A DNA stretch of 64,000 bases from NCBI GenBank assembly GCA_963748625.1, contig CAVVJT010000004.1, positions 288,001-352,000 of the forward strand, given 5' to 3'. The notes below the pieces were generated by a model. That model saw only the letters and a program-made list of their open reading frames with translations. It was not told the DNA's origin and did no database searches. Each line of letters opens with the position of its first letter. Position 1 is the first letter of the stretch. A program made the translations under genes and the position numbers. This DNA is from an uncultured Chloroflexia bacterium (GTDB lineage: Bacteria > Chloroflexota > Limnocylindria > Limnocylindrales > CSP1-4). Below are positions 31,254 through 43,712 of this stretch, one piece after another.

Positions 31254-31995
31254 TCAACCCTGGCCGCGCGTGAGCTGCAGCTGGATCTCCAGGATCCCCT
31301 GGTCCTCCACGGACAGCACCATCATCGACTGGGGCTTCGCAATGCCGAAGTCCGCGAACTTGATCGGCAGCGAGCCCGCGACAGTGACGACATCCCCAGC
31401 CAGGCGGGCCTGGAGCGGGATCTCGACGGACTTGGTGACGCCGTGGAGCGTGAGGTCACCCGTCGCGGTCGCCTCGACCGTCGCCCCGTCGGCCGGCACG
31501 GAACCGAGATCGATCGGTGCCGTGAGCGTGAACGTGGCCGTCGGGAACCGGCCGGTCTCGAGCGCCTGGCCCTCCAGCTGCCCGTCGCGCCGGGAGTTGT
31601 CGCTCTTCAAGGTGGTCAGGTCCGCGGTGAACTCGGCAGCCTCGATGGTGCTGCCGTTGAGGGTGATGCTCCCCGTGACATCGGGTGTGCGACCCACGGC
31701 CTCGGTCGCGCCAATGTTGGCGAGCGTCTCCTTCACGCGGTAGCCGACAAAGGAGCCCGAGAAGTCCGAGAAGGAGCCGACCGACGGATCCACGGTCCAC
31801 ATGCCGTCAGCACCCTCCGCCGGAGGCGGTTCCCGGGGTGGCAACGGGCGCGGGCGTCCCGAGCGACACGGGGGCCGGTCCCGAAGGACGCAGGAAGAGG
31901 TACCAGAGGCCACCTGCCGCCACGAGGAGGACGGCGATGACCGCGACGATGCCGATGAGCGGCTTCCTGTTGGACGCGGGACGCTGGGTTGTCAC
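31254..31995 (-). CDS. YceI-family lipid/isoprenoid-binding protein; apparent frameshift near 31813
   Basis: Signal anchor in ORF 31807-31995; GYRVKE, SDNSRRD and GDLTLHGVTK in ORF 31254-31913. Confidence 0.85.
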
Positions 31996-32077
31996 CTGGG
32001 GGCTCCCCTACTGCCGGCTTGGGACGACGGCCACGGCCACCGTCGCAGGTAACCGTTGCTTAGTCAACTGACCCTTC

Positions 32078-32094
32078 GTGAGAGGTCCCTGAGA
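32078..32094 (-). promoter_or_regulatory. MprA-box-like direct repeat
   Basis: TCTCAG-ggacc-TCTCAC upstream of the yceI/GT39 operon. Confidence 0.75.
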
Positions 32095-32097
32095 GCG

Positions 32098-32572
32098 TCA
32101 GGCCCCGGCCTTGTACGGGTAGGTCACCCAATCGTGCACGGTGTCGGCGTAGAAGTCCGGCGCGCCGCCGACCCGCGAGCGCCCGGGCTTGTAGTGGATG
32201 ACCGCGGAGACGGGGGTGCCGCCGGCGGCGCGCACCCGGGCGAGCACTTCGGTCATCGTCTCGCCGGTCTCCCAGACCTCGTCCACGACCAGCACCCGGC
32301 GCCCGTCGAGGAGCGCCGCCTCTGGGAAGTGGCTGATCACCGGCGCATCGTGGGTCCCGCCCTCCGGCAGGTAGAACACGGCACCCGCGACCAGGATCTC
32401 CCGCAGGTCCAGCCGATAGGCCAGCATGCCTGCCGGCACGAGGCCGCCGCGCGTGATGGCCAGCACGACGTCATGGTCCCGGCCGCAGCGGTCGGCGAGA
32501 CGCGCGACGAGGGCGTCGAGCGCCTCCCAGGTGACGATCAGCGTGTCCGGCATGGTCCCATCATCGGGCATG
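32098..32572 (-). CDS. Purine phosphoribosyltransferase-like protein (type I PRT)
   Basis: AITRGGLVPA, VLVVDEVWETGET PRPP loop, WVTYPY; start approximate. Confidence 0.85.
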
Positions 32573-32593
32573 GCTGACACGACGTGCGTTGCG

Positions 32594-33331
32594 TTACGGA
32601 GCCGATGTGGCCTCCGCCTCCGGCGACGCTGCAGCCGAGGCTGCGGGCGCCGGGGTCGCGAGGATGTTGTGGCACAGCGTGCAGGTCTCCTCCTCGCGCA
32701 ACGCGTGGTCGATCGGGAGGGCGCCCGCCTGGCTCGACTGGTGGCACGAGCGGCAGGTCAGGTTCTGCGGATCGGGGTGCGGCTTGGCGGGCGGCGGAGC
32801 GGGGTTGGGCTTGTGGCACAGCCAGCACTCGTCCTGGTTGCGCCCGACCATGCTGGACGGCAGGTGCGCGACCGTGCCATGGCAGTCGAGGCATGGCTCG
32901 TGCAGGTCGGCGTGCGCCTGCGTGATCGCCGGCCCGTCGGGCGCCACTTTGTGGCAGTTGAGGCACTCGGTCTCGGCAATACCGGTATGGCCCGGCGCCT
33001 TGCGGCCCAGGTCCTGGTCGTCGTGGCAGGTGAGGCAGGCGGTCCAACCCTCGATCTGGTGGCCGATGGCCGGGATCGGCTTGAGGTCGGCGGCACCGCC
33101 CTTCTCGTGGCACAGGAGACAGCTGTTCGAGGTAGGGATGTGGGCCAGGCCCATCTGCATCGTCTCGGGCGTCGCAGAGGCCAACGGGGCGACCGACTCT
33201 GCCGCCGTACCGCGCGCGGGGATCACGTGCAGCCAGTCGAGCACCATGGTCAGCGCGAGGAGCCCCACCACGACCAGGTTGAGCGCGATGAGCAGCCGTA
33301 GCGTGCGGTCGAACCTCGATCGTCGTTTCAT
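32594..33331 (-). CDS. Membrane-anchored heptaheme cytochrome c
   Basis: Seven CxxCH motifs (CLLCH, CLTCH, CLNCH, CLDCH, CWLCH, CRSCH, CTLCH); N-terminal TM helix. Confidence 0.92.
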   Translation of the reverse strand: MKRRSRFDRTLRLLIALNLVVVGLLALTMVLDWLHVIPARGTAAESVAPLASATPETMQMGLAHIPTSNSCLLCHEKGGAADLKPIPAIGHQIEGWTACLTCHDDQDLGRKAPGHTGIAETECLNCHKVAPDGPAITQAHADLHEPCLDCHGTVAHLPSSMVGRNQDECWLCHKPNPAPPPAKPHPDPQNLTCRSCHQSSQAGALPIDHALREEETCTLCHNILATPAPAASAAASPEAEATSAP

Positions 33332-33876
33332 GCGTGCGCCCCTGTCGTCTGGGTGGGTGAGCCCGCCGCGATGCGGTGGGCTGCGATCTGCTCATCCATC
33401 ACACGGAGCTCGTCACGCACCGTCCCGATCGTCCGAGGCAGAGCGGCCGCGACAACGGGCGAGAGCCCCGTCCCGAATCCGGTGTTGACCACCTCGACCC
33501 CGACCAGCGCCACAGGCTCCGGGAGCCAGCCCATCAGGCGGGCCATGGCCAGCAGCTCGGCGACGGAGTTGGGCGCCTGCCCGGGTGCCCCGTCCGCCTG
33601 GACGATGGCATCGCCGTGCAGGACCGACACGGAACCCTCTGGCCCGCCCAGATGGAGCGCGTCCACCAGCACGAGGCCCCTGGCGTCGCGGACTGCGTGC
33701 AGCAGGTCCATCAGCAGCGTGCCGCCGTCCACGAGCCACGTGTGCTCGGGCAGCGCGACCGGGTCATGCTCCTGGATCTCGCGCAACGCCTCGATCACGC
33801 GCACGCCGATCGCGTCGTCGCGAAGCAGCACATTGCCCACGCCGATCACGACGAGCGGGCGGGTGGGCTCGCTCAC
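33328..33876 (-). CDS. hyaD: Hydrogenase maturation protease (HyaD/HybD family)
   Basis: GVGNVLLRDDAIG, DGGT, LVDA. Confidence 0.88.
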   Translation of the reverse strand: MSEPTRPLVVIGVGNVLLRDDAIGVRVIEALREIQEHDPVALPEHTWLVDGGTLLMDLLHAVRDARGLVLVDALHLGGPEGSVSVLHGDAIVQADGAPGQAPNSVAELLAMARLMGWLPEPVALVGVEVVNTGFGTGLSPVVAAALPRTIGTVRDELRVMDEQIAAHRIAAGSPTQTTGAHA

Positions 33877-34679
33877 GGCTCGGTCCGCTCCAGCAGCTCG
33901 GGGCCGCCGTCACGCGAGGCCACGACCTGGTGGCGGGTGGGGAACTTGTAGCCGTTGATCATCGAGGACACCAGGCCGTTCTGCTCGATGTGGTCGACCA
34001 GCACGCAGCTGTAGACGTGGAACAGCGCGATCGCGAGGATCACCCACATCGCGAGGTGATGGATCACGCGCAGCATCTGGGCTCCGAGCAGGTCACGCAG
34101 CCAGCCGAACATCGTCGCCCCGGGCTCGGCACCCATGAGGCCGTCGAGCGCGAAGCCCGTGACCGTCTCCGCGAGCAGCAGCACGAACAGCACGACGTAT
34201 GCCGTGGCGGCCAGCTGGTTGTGGCCGAGGACCTCGGGAATCTCCTTGCGGAAGAACCCGTAGAACCCGGCCTGGCGGTACAGCTCGGTCGCCTGGTAGC
34301 GGCTGGTCGGGATGAACGCCGTCCAGCGGGCGAACCGGTTGCCGAAGATCAGCATCCACGTCCGGACGAGACCCGACACGAGGAAGGTGAGCGCCGCGAT
34401 GATGTGGAGCAGCCGCACGTTGCTCATGAGGGCCCCGCCGGCCGGGATGAGGAAGGGATCCGCGATGTACATGCCCGAGATCGCGAGGATCACGATGCAC
34501 GCGGCGGTCACCCAGTGCGTGACCCGCACGGGCACCTGCCAGATGTAGAGCCGGACGCGGCGGCCCGGATCCTCGATGTGGTGCGCGGCGTCGGCGTGGG
34601 CACCAGCCGTCGGGACGGTGGCCGGGACGGCGGCCTCGGCGGACGCCGCGCCGGGAAGGGTCTCCTGGGCGACGGTCAT
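33873..34679 (-). CDS. hyaC: Ni/Fe-hydrogenase b-type cytochrome subunit
   Basis: WQVPVRVTHW, RLLH, GHNQL, IHH, FHVY. Confidence 0.92.
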   Translation of the reverse strand: MTVAQETLPGAASAEAAVPATVPTAGAHADAAHHIEDPGRRVRLYIWQVPVRVTHWVTAACIVILAISGMYIADPFLIPAGGALMSNVRLLHIIAALTFLVSGLVRTWMLIFGNRFARWTAFIPTSRYQATELYRQAGFYGFFRKEIPEVLGHNQLAATAYVVLFVLLLAETVTGFALDGLMGAEPGATMFGWLRDLLGAQMLRVIHHLAMWVILAIALFHVYSCVLVDHIEQNGLVSSMINGYKFPTRHQVVASRDGGPELLERTEP

Positions 34680-36454
34680 CGGACGGCCTCCGGGGCGGTT
34701 GCGCGGACGCTGACGACGGTGTCGCCGCCCGCTCGTGGATCGTGGACATGCGCCGCGCATGCGGCGCATGGGGCGATGGAGTGGACGACCCGCAGGATCT
34801 CCAGCGGCTGCGCGGCATCGGCGACCGGCGTGCCAACGAGCGAGGACTCGAGGGGGCCGGCCATCGCGAGCACGTCGCGAGGCGAGGCGTTCCAGGTGGA
34901 GCCGTCGACGACCTGGTAGGCGTCGACGTACTTGTTCTTGACGTGGACCCAGTGGTTGACGGAGCCGCGCGGGCCCTCTCCGGCCGACCAGCCGGCGAAC
35001 TCGTCGGGCCACGCGTTGGGATCCCACAGCTCCACGCTGGCGACCGAGACATCGCCCGTCGCAAGGCTGGAGCGAAGCTCCCAGACCCAGCCGTCGAGCT
35101 CGCGGCTCAGGACGTCGGTCTCGACCGCACGGGCCAGCATCCTGCCGAGCACGCCGGTGGTGCCCTTGGGGCCGAGGCCGGTGCGCTCGAGCAGCCGGGC
35201 CAGCGCCAGGCGGATCTCCGTCTGGCCGTTGGCGGCCCCCACCAGCACCCGGGCGAGGGGGCCGGTCTCCATCGGCAGCCCGTTGTACCGCGGCGCCTTG
35301 GACCAGGTGTACTTCCCATCCCCGTCAAGCTGCGTGAGCGGGAGCGTGGCGGTGAACATTGGGTCGGTGAGGCCGTCGACCGGGCGGGTCAGCGCATCGT
35401 CACCGTTGGGGTACGTGTACCAGGCGTGCTGGACCGACTCGCCGATGTCCTCGTGGCTCACCGGCTGGGAGCCCTCGAGGTTGCCTTCCATGAGGCGGCC
35501 GGCCGGGAAGAACATGACGGGTTTGGCGCTCTGGTCCTGCGGGAACTCCCCGTTGCACAGGTAGTTGCCCGGCCCGGCCCCAATCGTGGCGTACTCGGGA
35601 TAGGCGTTGGCGAGCATGACCGTGTCAGGGACGAACACCTGATCGACGAACATGCGAGCGCCCTGGATGAGGCCCGCCAGGAGGTCGAGGCCCTCCTGAC
35701 TCAGCGGCGGGGGTGCGTTGCGATCCGGGACCTGCGGGTGCTGGCGGGTCTGCGATGCGGCCGGACCACCCCACGGCGGGGCGACGGCCATGCCGCCCAC
35801 CAGGAATGTCTGGGGGTGCGGGTCCTTGCCGCCCAGGAGGGCTTCGAGCCGCAGGAAGTCCGCCTGCCAGTCCAGCGCCTCGAGCATGTGCGCGGCGAGG
35901 AGCAGGCTCTGCTCCGGGGTGAGCCGGTAGGCCGGATGGCCGGCCCAGCCGCCGCCGAACGGGTTCCGCTGCTCGCTTCCGAGGACGCCGGCAAGGCGGT
36001 CCTTGACCTCCTTGAACCACGCCGATGTCGAGTTCGCCCACGCGCTCTGACCCGTGGCCAGGCGCGCGGTCGCCACCGGATCCGCGGTCACGGCGAGGGA
36101 GATGTCCATCCAGTCCGAGAGGGACCGCTGGTACAGGACCATGACGTGATCGCGGACCATCATGGACGCCGCCATGATGCTGCGGATGAGGCGCGCATTG
36201 ACCGGGATCACGATGCCCAGCCCCTGCTCGACCGCACGTACGGACGCGAGCGCGTGGACGCCGGTGCAGGTCCCGCAGATGCGCTGGGCCAGCAGCCATG
36301 CGTCGCGCGGATCACGGCCCACGAGGACGGTCTCGATGCCGCGGAACGTGCCGGCCGACACCCAGGCCGACCCGACGTAACCGCCGACGGTCTCGGCATC
36401 GACGCGCATCTGGCCGTTGGCCCGGGTGACGGGATCGACGACGATGCGGGTCAT
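34676..36454 (-). CDS. hyaB: Group 1-type [NiFe]-hydrogenase large subunit, divergent active-site environment
   Basis: RICGTC and PCAACAAH Cys pairs, GRDPRDAW, GPRG, TWNASPRD; C-terminal extension after His. Confidence 0.92.
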   Translation of the reverse strand: MTRIVVDPVTRANGQMRVDAETVGGYVGSAWVSAGTFRGIETVLVGRDPRDAWLLAQRICGTCTGVHALASVRAVEQGLGIVIPVNARLIRSIMAASMMVRDHVMVLYQRSLSDWMDISLAVTADPVATARLATGQSAWANSTSAWFKEVKDRLAGVLGSEQRNPFGGGWAGHPAYRLTPEQSLLLAAHMLEALDWQADFLRLEALLGGKDPHPQTFLVGGMAVAPPWGGPAASQTRQHPQVPDRNAPPPLSQEGLDLLAGLIQGARMFVDQVFVPDTVMLANAYPEYATIGAGPGNYLCNGEFPQDQSAKPVMFFPAGRLMEGNLEGSQPVSHEDIGESVQHAWYTYPNGDDALTRPVDGLTDPMFTATLPLTQLDGDGKYTWSKAPRYNGLPMETGPLARVLVGAANGQTEIRLALARLLERTGLGPKGTTGVLGRMLARAVETDVLSRELDGWVWELRSSLATGDVSVASVELWDPNAWPDEFAGWSAGEGPRGSVNHWVHVKNKYVDAYQVVDGSTWNASPRDVLAMAGPLESSLVGTPVADAAQPLEILRVVHSIAPCAACAAHVHDPRAGGDTVVSVRATAPEAVR

Positions 36455-37731
36455 GCTTCGGGCTCCGCGGTCGTGGGCTGGGATTCGGGGGGCGTGGTGA
36501 CCGCAGCGTGGTCATCCGGAGGGGTGACGACCGCGACTTCGGCGGCTTCCGCGGCGGCCGGTGGCTGCGGGTCAGCCTCGGTGGCAAGCGCCTGCGGGTC
36601 AGCCTCGCCGGCCGCGGAGCCTCCCGCGCTGGCGGCTTCGGCGGCAGCTGCGGCCTCCGCCCTCGCGATCCGCTTCCGGCGCTTGAAGCGCATCCCCATC
36701 CCGGTCGCGTGAACGGCGACGACGCCGGCGATGCCGCCGACCATGGCCACACCGATCGTGTCCACCGTCAGGTTCGGCAGCGGCGGGACGGGCGCGGGGA
36801 GCCGGGCGTACGCCGGTCCCATCGCATCCCACGACGACGGGGTCATGCAGCCGATGCACCCCTCCCCTGCCCGGACGTTCCAGCTGACCCCGCCGCCGTA
36901 GCGGACGGTCGGGCAGTTGGCCATCGTCTCGGGTCCCTTGCAGCCGACCTTGTACAGGCACCAGCCCCGCTGGGCACCCTCGTCACCCCAGGACAGCGCG
37001 AACTCGCCGAACTCGAAGTGGGGGCGCCGCTCGCACTGGTTGTGGACCAGGTTGCCGTAGGCCGAGAGTGGGCGGCTCATGAGGTCCGTGGGCGGCCACT
37101 CGCGGAAGGTCAGCCAGTGGATGAGCACCGAGACGAGCGTGACCACGTTGAGCGGGCATCCCGGCAGCGCGATGTACTGGGCGTTCCCGATGTAGCCCCT
37201 GATGCCCTCGGCGTCGGTGAGGTTGTTCCTGGCCGCCGAGATGCCGCCGTCACAGGCGCAGGATCCTGCCGCGATCACCGCGATCGCCCCGTCGGCGACC
37301 TCGCGCAGGACATCGGCTGCCGGCCGCCCTTGGATCAGGCAGTAGCCGTCGCCGCCGCGAGGGAGGCTTCCCTCCACGACCAGGACGTAGCCGCCCGGGT
37401 AGCGCTCCATCGCATCGGTGAGCGCCTGGCCTGCCCCGGCGCCCGAGACCGCGAGGAACGAGTCGTGGTACTCGATGGAGACCGTCTCGAGGAAGAGCTG
37501 CGACACGGAGGGGTCGATCGAGCGCAGGGTCGCCTCGGTGTTGCCACCGCAGGTCTGCGTGCGGAGCCAGATGACCGGCAGGCGGGGGGCGGCTTCGACG
37601 GCTGCAGCGATGCGCGGGGCGTAGGTGGTCGGCAGCGCGAGGGCAGCGGCCATGGCGGTCGAGAATTGGAGGAACGACCTCCGGGACATCCCGCGCCGCA
37701 CCAGCGCGCCGTACAGCCCTCCGTCGTCCAT
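36451..37731 (-). CDS. hyaA: [NiFe]-hydrogenase small subunit, Tat-exported, with C-terminal TM anchor
   Basis: SRRSFLQF Tat motif; PGCP, HNQC, CLYKVGCKGP, GCIGC. Confidence 0.92.
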   Translation of the reverse strand: MDDGGLYGALVRRGMSRRSFLQFSTAMAAALALPTTYAPRIAAAVEAAPRLPVIWLRTQTCGGNTEATLRSIDPSVSQLFLETVSIEYHDSFLAVSGAGAGQALTDAMERYPGGYVLVVEGSLPRGGDGYCLIQGRPAADVLREVADGAIAVIAAGSCACDGGISAARNNLTDAEGIRGYIGNAQYIALPGCPLNVVTLVSVLIHWLTFREWPPTDLMSRPLSAYGNLVHNQCERRPHFEFGEFALSWGDEGAQRGWCLYKVGCKGPETMANCPTVRYGGGVSWNVRAGEGCIGCMTPSSWDAMGPAYARLPAPVPPLPNLTVDTIGVAMVGGIAGVVAVHATGMGMRFKRRKRIARAEAAAAAEAASAGGSAAGEADPQALATEADPQPPAAAEAAEVAVVTPPDDHAAVTTPPESQPTTAEPEA

Positions 37732-37967
37732 CACTCTCTCTCGTTGTGCTGTCGCGACGGGCCGACCGGAGGCCAGGCAACGGCCGCGACGTGGCTATGG
37801 GAACGCCGGTACCCATGCTCGTCGACGCGCATGCCCCCCGACGCCTGTCGGAAGTCGCCGCGCTGCATGGCGAAGGGCACTGTATTGCGGCCCGTATGGC
37901 TTGTCGGCGTACCTGCTTGTCGGCCCGGGCAACGGGGGTCACGGAGCCTGTCGGTCGGCTCTGGGCC

Positions 37968-40854: not shown

Positions 40855-40872
40855 CCTAAGGTTTCCCTAAGG
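40855..40872. promoter_or_regulatory. CCTAAGG-N4-CCTAAGG direct repeat (11-bp period), candidate KdpE-type site
   Basis: Exact 7-bp repeat upstream of the small-ORF/kimA unit. Confidence 0.45.
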
Positions 40873-41598
40873 ATTGGCGCCCAGGTCGCGGATCCGGTAG
40901 CCCACTCCCGGTTCGGTGCGGATCAGGTCGTCGAGCGTGCCATCAGGGTCGGAGGCCGCGAGCTTGCGGCGCAGCTGGCTCACGTGCACGTAGACGTAGC
41001 TGTCCTCGCCCTGGTACGCCTCGCCCCAGACGGCCCGGAGCAGGCGGCCCTTGGTGACGACACGGCCGCGATGGGTGAGCAGGATGCGCAGGAGCTCGAA
41101 CTCGCGCGGGGTCAGGTCCACGCGCCGTCCGTCGACCGTCACCTCGTGCGTGGCGGCGTCCAGGACGAGCGGGCCCGTCGCGATCCGGCCGGCGGCGTCC
41201 CCGCCGGGCCCGACGGCCCGGCGCAGCGCCACCCGGAGGCGGGCCCGGAGCTCGTCCACCCCAAAGGGTTTGGTCACGTAGTCGTCCGCTCCCCGGTCGA
41301 GCGCCTCGACCTTCTCGCGCTCCTCGTACCGGCCCGACAGGATCACGATCGGGGTGGCCGCCTCCCGGCGCATCGTGCCGACGAGCGTGAGCCCGTCCAT
41401 GTCCGGCAACCCGAGGTCGAGCAGGACGAGATCCGGCCGACGCGCTGCCCAGCGCTCCAGGGCCGTCCGGCCGTCGGGCGCCTCCACAACGGTGTAGCCG
41501 CCCGAGGCGAGCTCCCGGACGAGCGCCGCGCGCGTCTCGGCATCGTCCTCCACGACCAGGATCGTGGGCCCGGTGCCGGGTGCGGGGCTGCGCATCAT
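40867..41598 (-). CDS. kdpE: KdpE-like response regulator
   Basis: LLDLGLPDMDG, EKVEALDRGADDYVTKPFG, IRTEPGVGY. Confidence 0.88.
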   Translation of the reverse strand: MMRSPAPGTGPTILVVEDDAETRAALVRELASGGYTVVEAPDGRTALERWAARRPDLVLLDLGLPDMDGLTLVGTMRREAATPIVILSGRYEEREKVEALDRGADDYVTKPFGVDELRARLRVALRRAVGPGGDAAGRIATGPLVLDAATHEVTVDGRRVDLTPREFELLRILLTHRGRVVTKGRLLRAVWGEAYQGEDSYVYVHVSQLRRKLAASDPDGTLDDLIRTEPGVGYRIRDLGANP

Positions 41599-43199
41599 GC
41601 GGGCGTCCGGGCGTACAGGCCTGCCTCGCCGTCGGCGGCCTGTGCGACCTCACCGTCGGCAGGCGCCTCGCCGGGGAGTGCGCCCGCGGGCAGGTCGATG
41701 TCCACGGCCAGCCCGCCCAGCGCGCCCCGCCGCGCGGCCACCGCGCCCCCCATCGCCTCGATCAGGCCGCGCGTCACCGCGAGCCCGATGCCGGTCCCCT
41801 CCCTCGATCGCCTGCCCGAGCCCGGGACGCGGTAGAACTTCTCGAACAGCCGGTCCAGGTGCTCGGGGGCGACGCCGGAGCCGTCGTCCTCCACGGTGAG
41901 GCGCACGCGCTCCGGATCGAGGTCCCGCGCCGTGACCAGGATGCGGGCGCCGTCGGGCGTGTGCTTCAGGGCATTGTCGAGGACGTTCGTCACCGCCTCA
42001 TCCACGAACACCGCGTCCACCACGACCGGGGCGGAACGCAGGTCGGCCTGGAGGGTGCGCGCGCCGAGGCGCTGGCGGGTGCTGTCGAGCGCGCGCGCGA
42101 GGAGGTCGTCGAGGTCGAACAGCTCGCGGTTCGCCCGTAGCGCGCCCGCCTCGATCCGGGAGAGGTCGAGCAGGTTGGTGACCATCCGGTTGAGGTACTC
42201 GACCTCACGCTCGATCGCGTCAGCGCTGGCGCGGCGGTCCTCGTCCGACAGGCTCGTGCCCGGGCGCAGGCTGCCGGCCGCCGCGCGGATGGTGGCGAGC
42301 GGCGTGCGCAGGTCGTGCGACACGGACTGGAGGAGCGCGCTCTTGAGGGCGTCGCTCTCCCGCGCGATCTCGGACGCGCGGACCCGGTCCTCGACCATGT
42401 CGTGCGCGAGCGCCTGGCCCACCTGGTCCGCGACCGCGGCCATCAGCCGCGTGCCCACTGCGTCCGGCTCGCCGAGCACGCGGGGGCGCTCGGCCCACAG
42501 CGAGCCGAGGGGCTCGCCGCTCGCCTCGATGCGGACGCGGTAGGTGTCCACGGGACCGGCAGTACGGCGGCCCGCCTCAGGGCGCTGGACGATCGACCAG
42601 CGCGCCGGCTCATCACCGGGCGTCCGCTGGAGGACCCGGTGGCGGGCGGGCAGCGCGGGCGGACGGGCAGCGCCGGTGTCCGCGAGCACCGTCTCCGCCG
42701 CCGGATCCGGACCAGTGGCGATCCAGGCGCGCTCGAGCCCAACCTGCGCCCGGAGCGACCCCAGGATGGCGCTCGTGGCCTCCGCCATCGACGTGCGGGT
42801 GGCGAGGGCGCGGCTGGTGCCGAACAGCGCCCGGGCCTCCAGGGCGGCGGCGTCCGCAGCATCGGCACGACGTCGCTGGAGGGCGGCGAGCTCACCCACC
42901 GTCACGCCCACGAACAGCAGCAGCACCACGCTGAGCAGCACCCCCGAGTCATGGATCGCGAAGGTGAACCGGGGCTCGGTGAACCAGAAGTTGTACAGGG
43001 CGGCTGAGCCGACCGCCGTCACGACCGCACCGCCGGTGCCGACGAGCAGGGCGGCGAGGACGACGGCGACGAGGTAGGCGGACGAGGCGTTGGCCACGCC
43101 GACGGCATGCTCCAGGGCCGCGACGGCCAGCGTGGCGGCGGCCAGCAGTGCCAGGACGATGAGGACGGCGCGTATCGCGCGCCAGAGAGGACCGTGCAT
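41595..43199 (-). CDS. kdpD: KdpD-like sensor kinase (DUF4118-GAF-HisKA), lacking the N-terminal KdpD/USP domains
   Basis: YNFWFTEPRFTF, SVSHDLRTPL, DLSRIEAG, GTGIGL. Confidence 0.85.
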   Translation of the reverse strand: MHGPLWRAIRAVLIVLALLAAATLAVAALEHAVGVANASSAYLVAVVLAALLVGTGGAVVTAVGSAALYNFWFTEPRFTFAIHDSGVLLSVVLLLFVGVTVGELAALQRRRADAADAAALEARALFGTSRALATRTSMAEATSAILGSLRAQVGLERAWIATGPDPAAETVLADTGAARPPALPARHRVLQRTPGDEPARWSIVQRPEAGRRTAGPVDTYRVRIEASGEPLGSLWAERPRVLGEPDAVGTRLMAAVADQVGQALAHDMVEDRVRASEIARESDALKSALLQSVSHDLRTPLATIRAAAGSLRPGTSLSDEDRRASADAIEREVEYLNRMVTNLLDLSRIEAGALRANRELFDLDDLLARALDSTRQRLGARTLQADLRSAPVVVDAVFVDEAVTNVLDNALKHTPDGARILVTARDLDPERVRLTVEDDGSGVAPEHLDRLFEKFYRVPGSGRRSREGTGIGLAVTRGLIEAMGGAVAARRGALGGLAVDIDLPAGALPGEAPADGEVAQAADGEAGLYARTPA

Positions 43200-43712
43200 G
43201 GCGCCGATCCTACCCCTCAGGTCGGACGCATTCCCGACCGCGGGGTGCCTCAGTCGCCATGTGCGCGCCGCCCCGCTGTCTCCGGCACACGGGGGGACGC
43301 CCGTCCCCGGGGACGCCGACGGAGTGTGCGGGCCCGAGCTACCCGGCGCGCGTTGCCCCGGGGACGAGGGCGCCCGACCTCCCCCTGGGAACGTCTGGCG
43401 CGTCACCATCGTGCGCGTCGTCACTTATGCGCCGCTTATCTCGCTCCACCGGTCTGGCACCGTGCATCGCTGGCGGATCACCGTGGTACGCCGGGGGTGC
43501 CACGACGCGCACGCCCCACCCCGGGGGCGTTTCGGAGTCCCTTCCGCACGCGGTGCGCTCGTAACCCGGGGTTTCGCCCCCGGCTCGTGCTCAGACGGCC
43601 GCGAAGCGGCCCCCACGTGGGGCGAGACGCGACACATGCACCCGGTGAGCGGCGCCTGCCACCCTCCTGCCGGCTGTGCCTACGCGGGGCCAGCCGATGA
43701 CGAGGAGGCGGC

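Follow-up and report, generated by a model that had tools for sequence, protein, structure and literature searches.

The closest described relatives of the operon reported here are the canonical group-1 uptake [NiFe]-hydrogenases of Limnocylindrales, Ktedonobacterales, Roseiflexus, Acidobacteriota and Geobacteraceae. Models of [NiFe]-hydrogenase catalysis assume a Cys-Glu proton gate together with a pendant Arg, and take the two to be universal. In E. coli Hyd-1, E28 has been described as an apparently universal proton gate next to C576 (PMC8020662), and the canopy Arg as essential for fast H2 oxidation (PMC8020662, PMC11134402), with the R509K variant being ~100-fold slower (PMC8020662). The window analysed here, a 64,000-nucleotide stretch of contig CAVVJT010000004.1 (positions 288,001 to 352,000) from an uncultured Chloroflexia bacterium, carries an operon with the same architecture as the canonical enzymes, namely a small subunit (SSU) with a twin-arginine translocation (Tat) signal, a large subunit (LSU), a HyaC-type cytochrome b and a maturation protease. 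Its LSU lacks the gate Glu, and its last gene encodes a seven-heme cytochrome c. The canonical enzymes share 43-48% LSU identity with it and also have Asn or Asp for the second proximal Cys, but they differ in having RIEGH, VPSTWN, SFDPC and the full His-rich motif, and in having neither a 17-residue insertion nor a heptaheme gene. We put at about even the chance that the operon encodes a working [NiFe] uptake hydrogenase that is matured, exported by the Tat route and bound to the membrane, its proton exit rerouted and a heme wire added as a further output.

Among solved structures, the best phmmer matches to the LSU were 3myr_B and 4c3o_A (~1e-134). The former, the A. vinosum Hyn/Isp-type hydrogenase (2e-134), to which the T. 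roseopersicina enzyme is a close relative, differs from the window LSU in that the gate Glu, the Val-Pro of the pocket and the canopy Asp are all present. Engineered E28Q, R509K and D574/D118 variants of E. coli Hyd-1 alter the same positions that nature has altered in the window lineage; these are, however, single changes in a canonical shell, whereas the lineage adds an invariant Asp, an insertion and tunnel changes.

The five genes lie on the minus strand at 32594-37734 in a window of ~72% G+C, and are listed below as open reading frames (ORFs):

36451-37734, minus strand: [NiFe]-hydrogenase small subunit (427 aa; TIGR00391 354 bits, PF14720, PF01058, Tat signal)
34676-36454, minus strand: [NiFe]-hydrogenase large subunit of the Glu-less lineage (592 aa; PF00374 533 bits)
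33873-34679, minus strand: HyaC-type b-type cytochrome, the membrane quinone-reactive subunit (268 aa; TIGR02125 127.5 bits, PF01292)
33328-33876, minus strand: HyaD/HybD-type maturation endopeptidase (182 aa; TIGR00072 104 bits, PF01750)
32594-33331, minus strand: membrane-anchored heptaheme cytochrome c (245 aa; seven CxxCH, multiheme c families)

Pfam and NCBIfam profiles put names on all five ORFs, with the start of cytochrome b set at MTVAQ. All four junctions are 4-nt start/stop overlaps (ATGA three times, GTGA once) and the frames are open, so the description of an intact, translationally coupled operon in the initial annotation of this DNA, made from the letters alone, is borne out.

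The LSU match to PF00374 spans the whole profile (positions 1-508 of 508, 533 bits; the canonical paralogue of the same genome scores higher, at 774 bits). Residues were mapped by phmmer against solved structures, with query residues 3-569 aligned to residues 18-582 of the E. coli Hyd-1 chain. The initial annotation had aligned the protein by eye, and its reading stands at every site: both CxxC pairs (C60, C63, C563 and C566) and R496 (=R509) are kept, as are D102 (=D118) and H103, and the changes are N13 for E28, Q15 for H30, V106 for H122, D517/G518 for V530/P531 and A561 for D574. Codon translations confirm PVTRANGQ, VVDGS and HSIAPCAACAAH. The canopy Arg and Asp pair R496 and D102 is thus present, while the D574 partner is Ala561. 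The Mg-site Glu is retained as E41 (assigned by offset), and the C-terminal H569 is followed by a 23-residue tail, with a protease gene within the operon. The Val-Pro pair at Hyd-1 V530/P531 presumably lines the pocket of the Fe diatomic ligands. We take LSU positions 499 and 517 to match the Leu and Val that surround the CO ligand of D. vulgaris hydrogenase, an assignment for which a literature search (Val500/Leu482) gave no support. The altered sites in the LSU gene are as follows:

36416-36418, minus strand: Asn13 codon at the proton-gate Glu site (Hyd-1 E28), from alignment and the translation PVTRANGQ
36269-36271, minus strand: Thr62 codon between the two N-terminal Ni cysteines (CGTC for CGVC)
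35729-35779, minus strand: 17-residue lineage-specific insertion PPWGGPAASQTRQHPQV, residues 226-242, from translation
34904-34909, minus strand: Asp517-Gly518 codons at Hyd-1 V530/P531, from the translation VVDGS
34772-34774, minus strand: Ala561 codon at the canopy Asp site (Hyd-1 D574), from the translation HSIAPCAACAAH

These changes are common to almost all of the 120 best clusters retrieved with the window LSU (52-100% identity). A family set was built from these clusters, 119 retrieved with the basal member L029 and one representative; after removal of two of the 240 rows that were shorter than 520 residues, 238 full-length proteins were compared with 66 canonical rows. None of the 238 has Glu at the Hyd-1 E28 site (Gly 203, Asn 22, Asp 6, Ser 4, Thr 2, gap 1). 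Because identical changes recur in hundreds of homologues, they are neither a one-off nor the sequencing error that the initial annotation had already argued against. At the V530 site Asp is present in 238/238 family rows and Val in 66/66 canonical rows. The 17-residue insertion, which follows GGM, occurs in every family row and in no canonical row; of its residues, W228, G230, P231 and H239 are individually conserved in 97% or more of the family, W228 and H239 in all 238. These four residues and D517 are the only lineage-specific LSU invariants relative to the canonical rows, while 79 columns are common to both groups at 90% or more. Being invariant across the lineage, Asp517 is the strongest candidate for a new functional residue. 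This favours the new Asp to which the initial annotation had drawn attention, although it does not separate the three alternatives offered there, namely a different substrate or metal centre, a rerouted proton path, and a non-catalytic electron conduit.

Further canonical invariants are altered in the lineage: the His-rich motif has lost three of its His, and N211 has become Asp, L499 Val, A494 Gly or Ser, and P518 (Hyd-1 P531) Gly or Ala. Position 62, between the N-terminal cysteines, is Val in all 66 canonical rows and mostly Thr (137), Ser (48) or Ala (31) in the family, and position 110, canonically Leu, is Arg in the window (family Arg 83, Ala 53, Leu 26, Gln 25, Ser 24). In D. fructosovorans, V74, L122 and R476 form the gas-tunnel bottleneck (PMC11134402), and mapping by offset suggests that LSU positions 62, 110 and 496 correspond to these. 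What the family does retain is the metal-binding framework. Each of the four Ni-Fe cysteines is found in 222-237 of the 238 rows (C76 237, C576 236, C579 237), the E57 equivalent in 237, H103 in 233 and E445 (window numbering) in all 238. The canopy Asp carries less weight than the initial annotation had given it; the change in the window is real, but 112 of the 238 rows keep D574, basal members included (Ala 87, Asn 19, Ser 13), and [NiFeSe] enzymes are reported to carry Ser at this site naturally (PMC8020662). The C-terminal tail is present in 179 rows and absent in 59, with at least six state changes on the tree. The window LSU falls in a 119-row subgroup that has lost D574 and kept the Arg, D118 and the tail. 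Members of the P0390-P0413 type (e.g. L029:4548-6239) end at the C-terminal His without a tail; D118 is mostly, and the Arg often, absent from them, and the L029-type operon has no protease gene between the cytochrome b and heme genes.

How protons might leave such a site is suggested by work on T. roseopersicina HynL, where the E14Q variant retains ~50% in vitro activity, mutagenesis argues for proton transfer along Arg487-Asp103-His104(-Glu436), and the His residues found dispensable for activity match those lost in the window LSU (PMC3325256). The window LSU has every residue of this chain, as R496, D102, H103 and E445. Since HynL E14Q keeps about half of its activity, loss of the Glu need not abolish catalysis; the absence of the proton-transfer residue singled out by the initial annotation is therefore confirmed, but it is not necessarily inactivating. 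In our preferred reading, the standard NiFe(CN)2CO cofactor would still be inserted and H2 still split, and protons would no longer exit via the Cys576-Glu28 gate. They may instead follow the retained R496-D102-H103-E445 chain, a new path of Asp517 and the insertion, or both. Electrons would travel along three Fe-S clusters and reach both cytochrome b (quinone) and the membrane-anchored, all-bis-His seven-heme wire, which would provide an extracytoplasmic outlet absent from the genome's own canonical paralogue.

Besides an N-terminal helix and a tail rich in Pro and Ala, the heptaheme cytochrome has seven CxxCH motifs and a further seven invariant His. Across 30 aligned sequences none of the CxxCH motifs varies, and neither do H64, H91, H115, H140, H156, H185 and H209. 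Seven motifs together with seven further invariant His point to seven bis-His hemes, and hence to a wire for electron transfer rather than a catalytic heme. The protein matches c7/c3/NrfB-like Pfam families, and the ESM Atlas returned only generic c7/c3/NrfB-like clusters for the heme domain (0.88-0.90). In an AlphaFold2 (AF2) model (predicted local distance difference test score, pLDDT, 47.9) the helix at residues 3-36 is the sole confident part. A complex prediction for the SSU, cytochrome b and the heptaheme protein scored 0.03 and, made without controls, speaks neither for nor against binding. Although 481 homologous clusters were found, the range of the protein is narrow (matches in 10 of the 401 genomes sampled across the phylum, and in 8 of 23 from the bacterium's own family). 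Periplasmic Desulfovibrio-type hydrogenases pass electrons to the bis-His multiheme cytochrome c3; the window cytochrome differs from this arrangement in being membrane-anchored, in carrying seven hemes and in being encoded in the operon alongside a cytochrome b.

The initial annotation had proposed looking for conserved synteny with the multiheme gene, and this was found. A screen for CxxCH-rich ORFs covered 52 of 80 loci, 15 variant (L009-L022 and L029) and 37 canonical; the 65 loci outside L009-L022 and L029 are all canonical by LSU motif. A seven-heme gene lies 3' of the hydrogenase in 12/15 variant loci by tblastn; a multiheme gene does so in 0/37 canonical loci, two of which have multiheme ORFs elsewhere in the locus. 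Eleven of the 12 have all seven motifs and one is cut by the contig end. As for the three variant loci without the gene, two contigs end too early and L016 has a deletion. In the latter (L016:3436-5242) the LSU stops at residue 550 and is fused directly to the last 60 residues of the heme protein, with cytochrome b and the protease missing, which may be a decayed copy or an assembly artefact. L094 (G253) is a further variant locus with a linked seven-heme gene. Heptaheme paralogues of ~40% identity occur in clusters of a 6-heme protein, an NrfC-like 4Fe-4S protein, an NrfD-like protein and a 7-heme protein (L091:8982-12588, L092:5539-9218). These clusters resemble NrfC/NrfD-type quinone modules but hold no hydrogenase, and they may form a second quinone-linked heme-wire module in these bacteria. 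In a same-genus genome, a heptaheme homologue (G349:C1:884197-884907) has one in-frame TGA.

The SSU carries a Tat signal and sites for three Fe-S clusters, and its C-terminal membrane helix is followed by a low-complexity tail. All of its ligand columns are kept save the second proximal Cys, which is Asn65 (CGGN, residues 62-65). Asn or Asp stands at this position in 50 of 59 canonical neighbours (Asn 34, Asp 16), so the change is a trait of the wider group rather than of the Glu-less lineage. Asp162, in the motif at residues 159-164, is the same in each of the 15 variant sequences. A possible compensating ligand, the Cys two positions past the proximal Cys159, was considered and rejected, as it is not conserved (Phe 9, Cys 5, Val 1; n=15). 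The lineage-specific positions N232, E241 and Q255 adjoin distal-cluster ligands. Residue 286 (~36875-36877), beside the medial cluster, is Pro in 59/59 canonical and Asn in 12/15 variant sequences; we take this Pro to have a role at the medial cluster, which the change to Asn might alter. The tail after the membrane helix (residues ~356-427; 36451-36670, minus strand) is long and rich in Ala, Pro and Glu, and most homologues are far shorter here.

To place the lineage, a 164-row FastTree was built from the window LSU, every fourth full-length protein of P0002-P0120, the genome's own paralogue, those LSUs from the 80 loci that reach 520 residues, and representatives at 50% identity with lengths of 500-660 residues. 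In it the Glu-less proteins group together in a single clade (support 100) that includes the window LSU. This clade meets canonical RIEGH enzymes from metagenome-assembled genomes of Limnocylindrales (L023-L026) at an unresolved node, beyond which lie Ktedonobacterales, Dormibacterota and the genome's own canonical paralogue, followed by Roseiflexus, Acidobacteriota and Geobacteraceae. Loss of E28 needs a single change on a 248-row tree. A lineage that arose once, inside Chloroflexota (Limnocylindrales-like) and from a canonical group-1 ancestor, would fit these trees and belongs to the best explanation that, taken whole, we consider an even call. Group 1f has been assigned to Roseiflexus/Chloroflexales and Acidobacteria (PMC6776052, PMC5900883). 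Because its tree neighbours Roseiflexus and Acidobacteriota are reported 1f carriers, the ancestor was probably HydDB 1f-like, a placement based on which organisms are reported to carry 1f. Group 1m, described in PMC9561532 as an actinobacterial relative of 1h/1l, was rejected as the identity of the lineage.

Estimates of the ratio of nonsynonymous to synonymous substitution rates (dN/dS, NG86) were 0.24-0.36 for variant pairs against 0.21-0.29 for canonical sister pairs, values that are rough given a dS of 0.5-0.9 and an extreme G+C content at third codon positions. Purifying selection thus acts on an intact operon. The initial annotation had allowed that close homologues might all retain E28 while this copy decayed; the homologues instead lack the Glu throughout and selection is not visibly relaxed.

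The genome (4.6 Mb, 10 contigs) encodes six [NiFe] LSU homologues on contigs C4, C5 and C7 (L001-L008): the variant, one canonical group-1, three group-3-like and one group-4-like. The canonical paralogue that the initial annotation had suggested seeking lies at C7:964660-966210, in an operon of SSU, LSU, cytochrome b and protease genes with no heme-c gene. From the hypABCDEF set, which was likewise to be sought, the analysis covered hypD (495 bits), hypF (751 bits) and hypC (96 bits), all found on contig C10; only one HypD and one full HypF turned up in the genome, and two more copies of the maturation protease adjoin other hydrogenases. Seven relatives with a high-identity heme protein all have a variant-type LSU (one cut by the contig end), and six of the seven have a canonical-type LSU and HypD, G221 (94% complete) being without both; LSU type was judged here by Pfam score class, with the motif read directly only for G253 (L094). 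Immediately 3' of the operon, a phosphoribosyltransferase-domain gene and a YceI-like gene (31254-32580, minus strand) keep their synteny in most related loci, the former with 73-84% identity.

Several observations weigh against an uptake hydrogenase with a rerouted proton exit. Around the metal site the proton gate, T62, R110, D517, G518, V499, G494 and the His-rich motif are all altered. Beyond what the initial annotation had described, the classical catalytic residues are unstable within the lineage: among the 238 family rows, 47 lack the pendant Arg (R509; Gly 39, Lys 4, others 4), with at least 17 state changes on the tree, 43 lack D118 (at least 7 changes), 16 the bridging Cys79 (Asp in 12; at least 6 changes) and 20 H582 (Gln in 18; at least 9 changes). 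This pattern is unlike that of selection for classical H2 activation and would not be expected under it. Cytochrome b (60-78% identity to the window across 12 variant loci) and the heme protein (54-80%) are better conserved than the LSU (48-64%). Finally, AF2 modelling of the LSU on 27 aligned rows (mean pLDDT 73.6) gave confidence below 50 at residues 10-14, 60-64, 210-245 and 564-592 and is unreliable at the insertion. It is conceivable, though somewhat unlikely, that the lineage represents a natural re-invention of the active-site shell, in which the Glu and, in about a fifth of members, the Arg would be dispensable, and an invariant Asp in the Fe-ligand pocket, a Trp/His loop and a polar tunnel would serve H2 activation without either residue, or some other chemistry, wired to the seven-heme outlet. 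A changed function we also think somewhat unlikely, yet the recurrent disappearance of the Arg in other parts of the lineage keeps it a serious rival: a Ni-Fe-type site, still assembled with four cysteines, would no longer be selected for classical H2 oxidation, and Asp517 with the His and Trp of the insertion would build a new ligand sphere or catalytic apparatus. The substrate, the metal environment or the H2 mechanism could then be quite different, with electrons still leaving via the cytochrome b/heptaheme module. That the only lineage-specific invariants are D517 and the four insertion residues fits such a change, as do the variability or loss of residues that hold CN/CO or activate H2 (R509, D118, P531 to Ala/Gly, L512 to Val, A507 to Gly/Ser) and the polar or variable character of both gas-tunnel bottleneck positions. 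The coexistence of a canonical group-1 enzyme in this genome and in six of the seven relatives (by Pfam score class) also indicates that the variant adds something and is not a replacement. On the other hand, the window's own 119-row subclade keeps R509, D118, the tail and the protease, and a single HypD and full HypF imply the same Fe(CN)2CO unit for all six hydrogenases; we know of no reaction beyond H2/H+ chemistry for the NiFe(CN)2CO cofactor.

The better conservation of cytochrome b and the heme protein could also mean that the LSU is a mere scaffold, with the SSU clusters, cytochrome b and the seven-heme protein linking the quinone pool to extracytoplasmic partners, and the hydrogenase-free clusters with heme-protein paralogues do imply that the wire is used with other quinone modules. 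A scaffold, however, needs no cysteines conserved at 93-99%, no Mg-site Glu, no tail (179/238) and no operon protease, which makes this an improbable account. Still less credible is a slow, regulatory-type H2 sensor, even though the altered tunnel bottleneck and slowed proton path presumably resemble those of sensory hydrogenases. Group 2b regulatory hydrogenases are cytoplasmic and kinase-coupled, with no Tat signal or C-terminal extension, whereas the window enzyme has a Tat signal, a membrane helix, a cytochrome b and a C-terminal tail with its protease; the operon has no coupled kinase or regulator, and other genes lie between it and the nearest two-component genes (40867-43424). A decaying paralogue is the least probable of all. 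The canonical paralogue in the same genome and the L016 deletion, which takes out the end of the LSU, both cytochrome b and the protease, and the greater part of the heme gene, could be read that way, but open frames, synteny in 12/15 loci, 79 shared columns and dN/dS near that of canonical sisters refute it as far as sequence data can.

Our literature search found no description of a Glu-less group-1 clade or of a hydrogenase-linked heptaheme cytochrome in Chloroflexota, and none of a characterised H2-uptake subgroup with the same motifs, whose existence would have made the enzyme an ordinary one in the terms of the initial annotation. The lineage is not mentioned in the text of a Chloroflexi-supergroup preprint, the supplements of which may classify such genes. 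Nor did the search find such a hydrogenase- or quinone-to-extracytoplasm heme route described for Chloroflexota.

A lineage in which the Glu is missing everywhere and the Arg has been repeatedly lost provides a natural system for testing proton routes and the role of the Arg in [NiFe]-hydrogenases. The genes of this lineage are annotated as 'Ni,Fe-hydrogenase I large subunit', so that surveys would count their carriers as ordinary H2 oxidisers; if the function differs, inferences about H2 cycling in Limnocylindrales-type Chloroflexota need correcting. The seven-heme partner, in turn, hints that either H2 or the quinone pool may feed extracytoplasmic acceptors in these bacteria.

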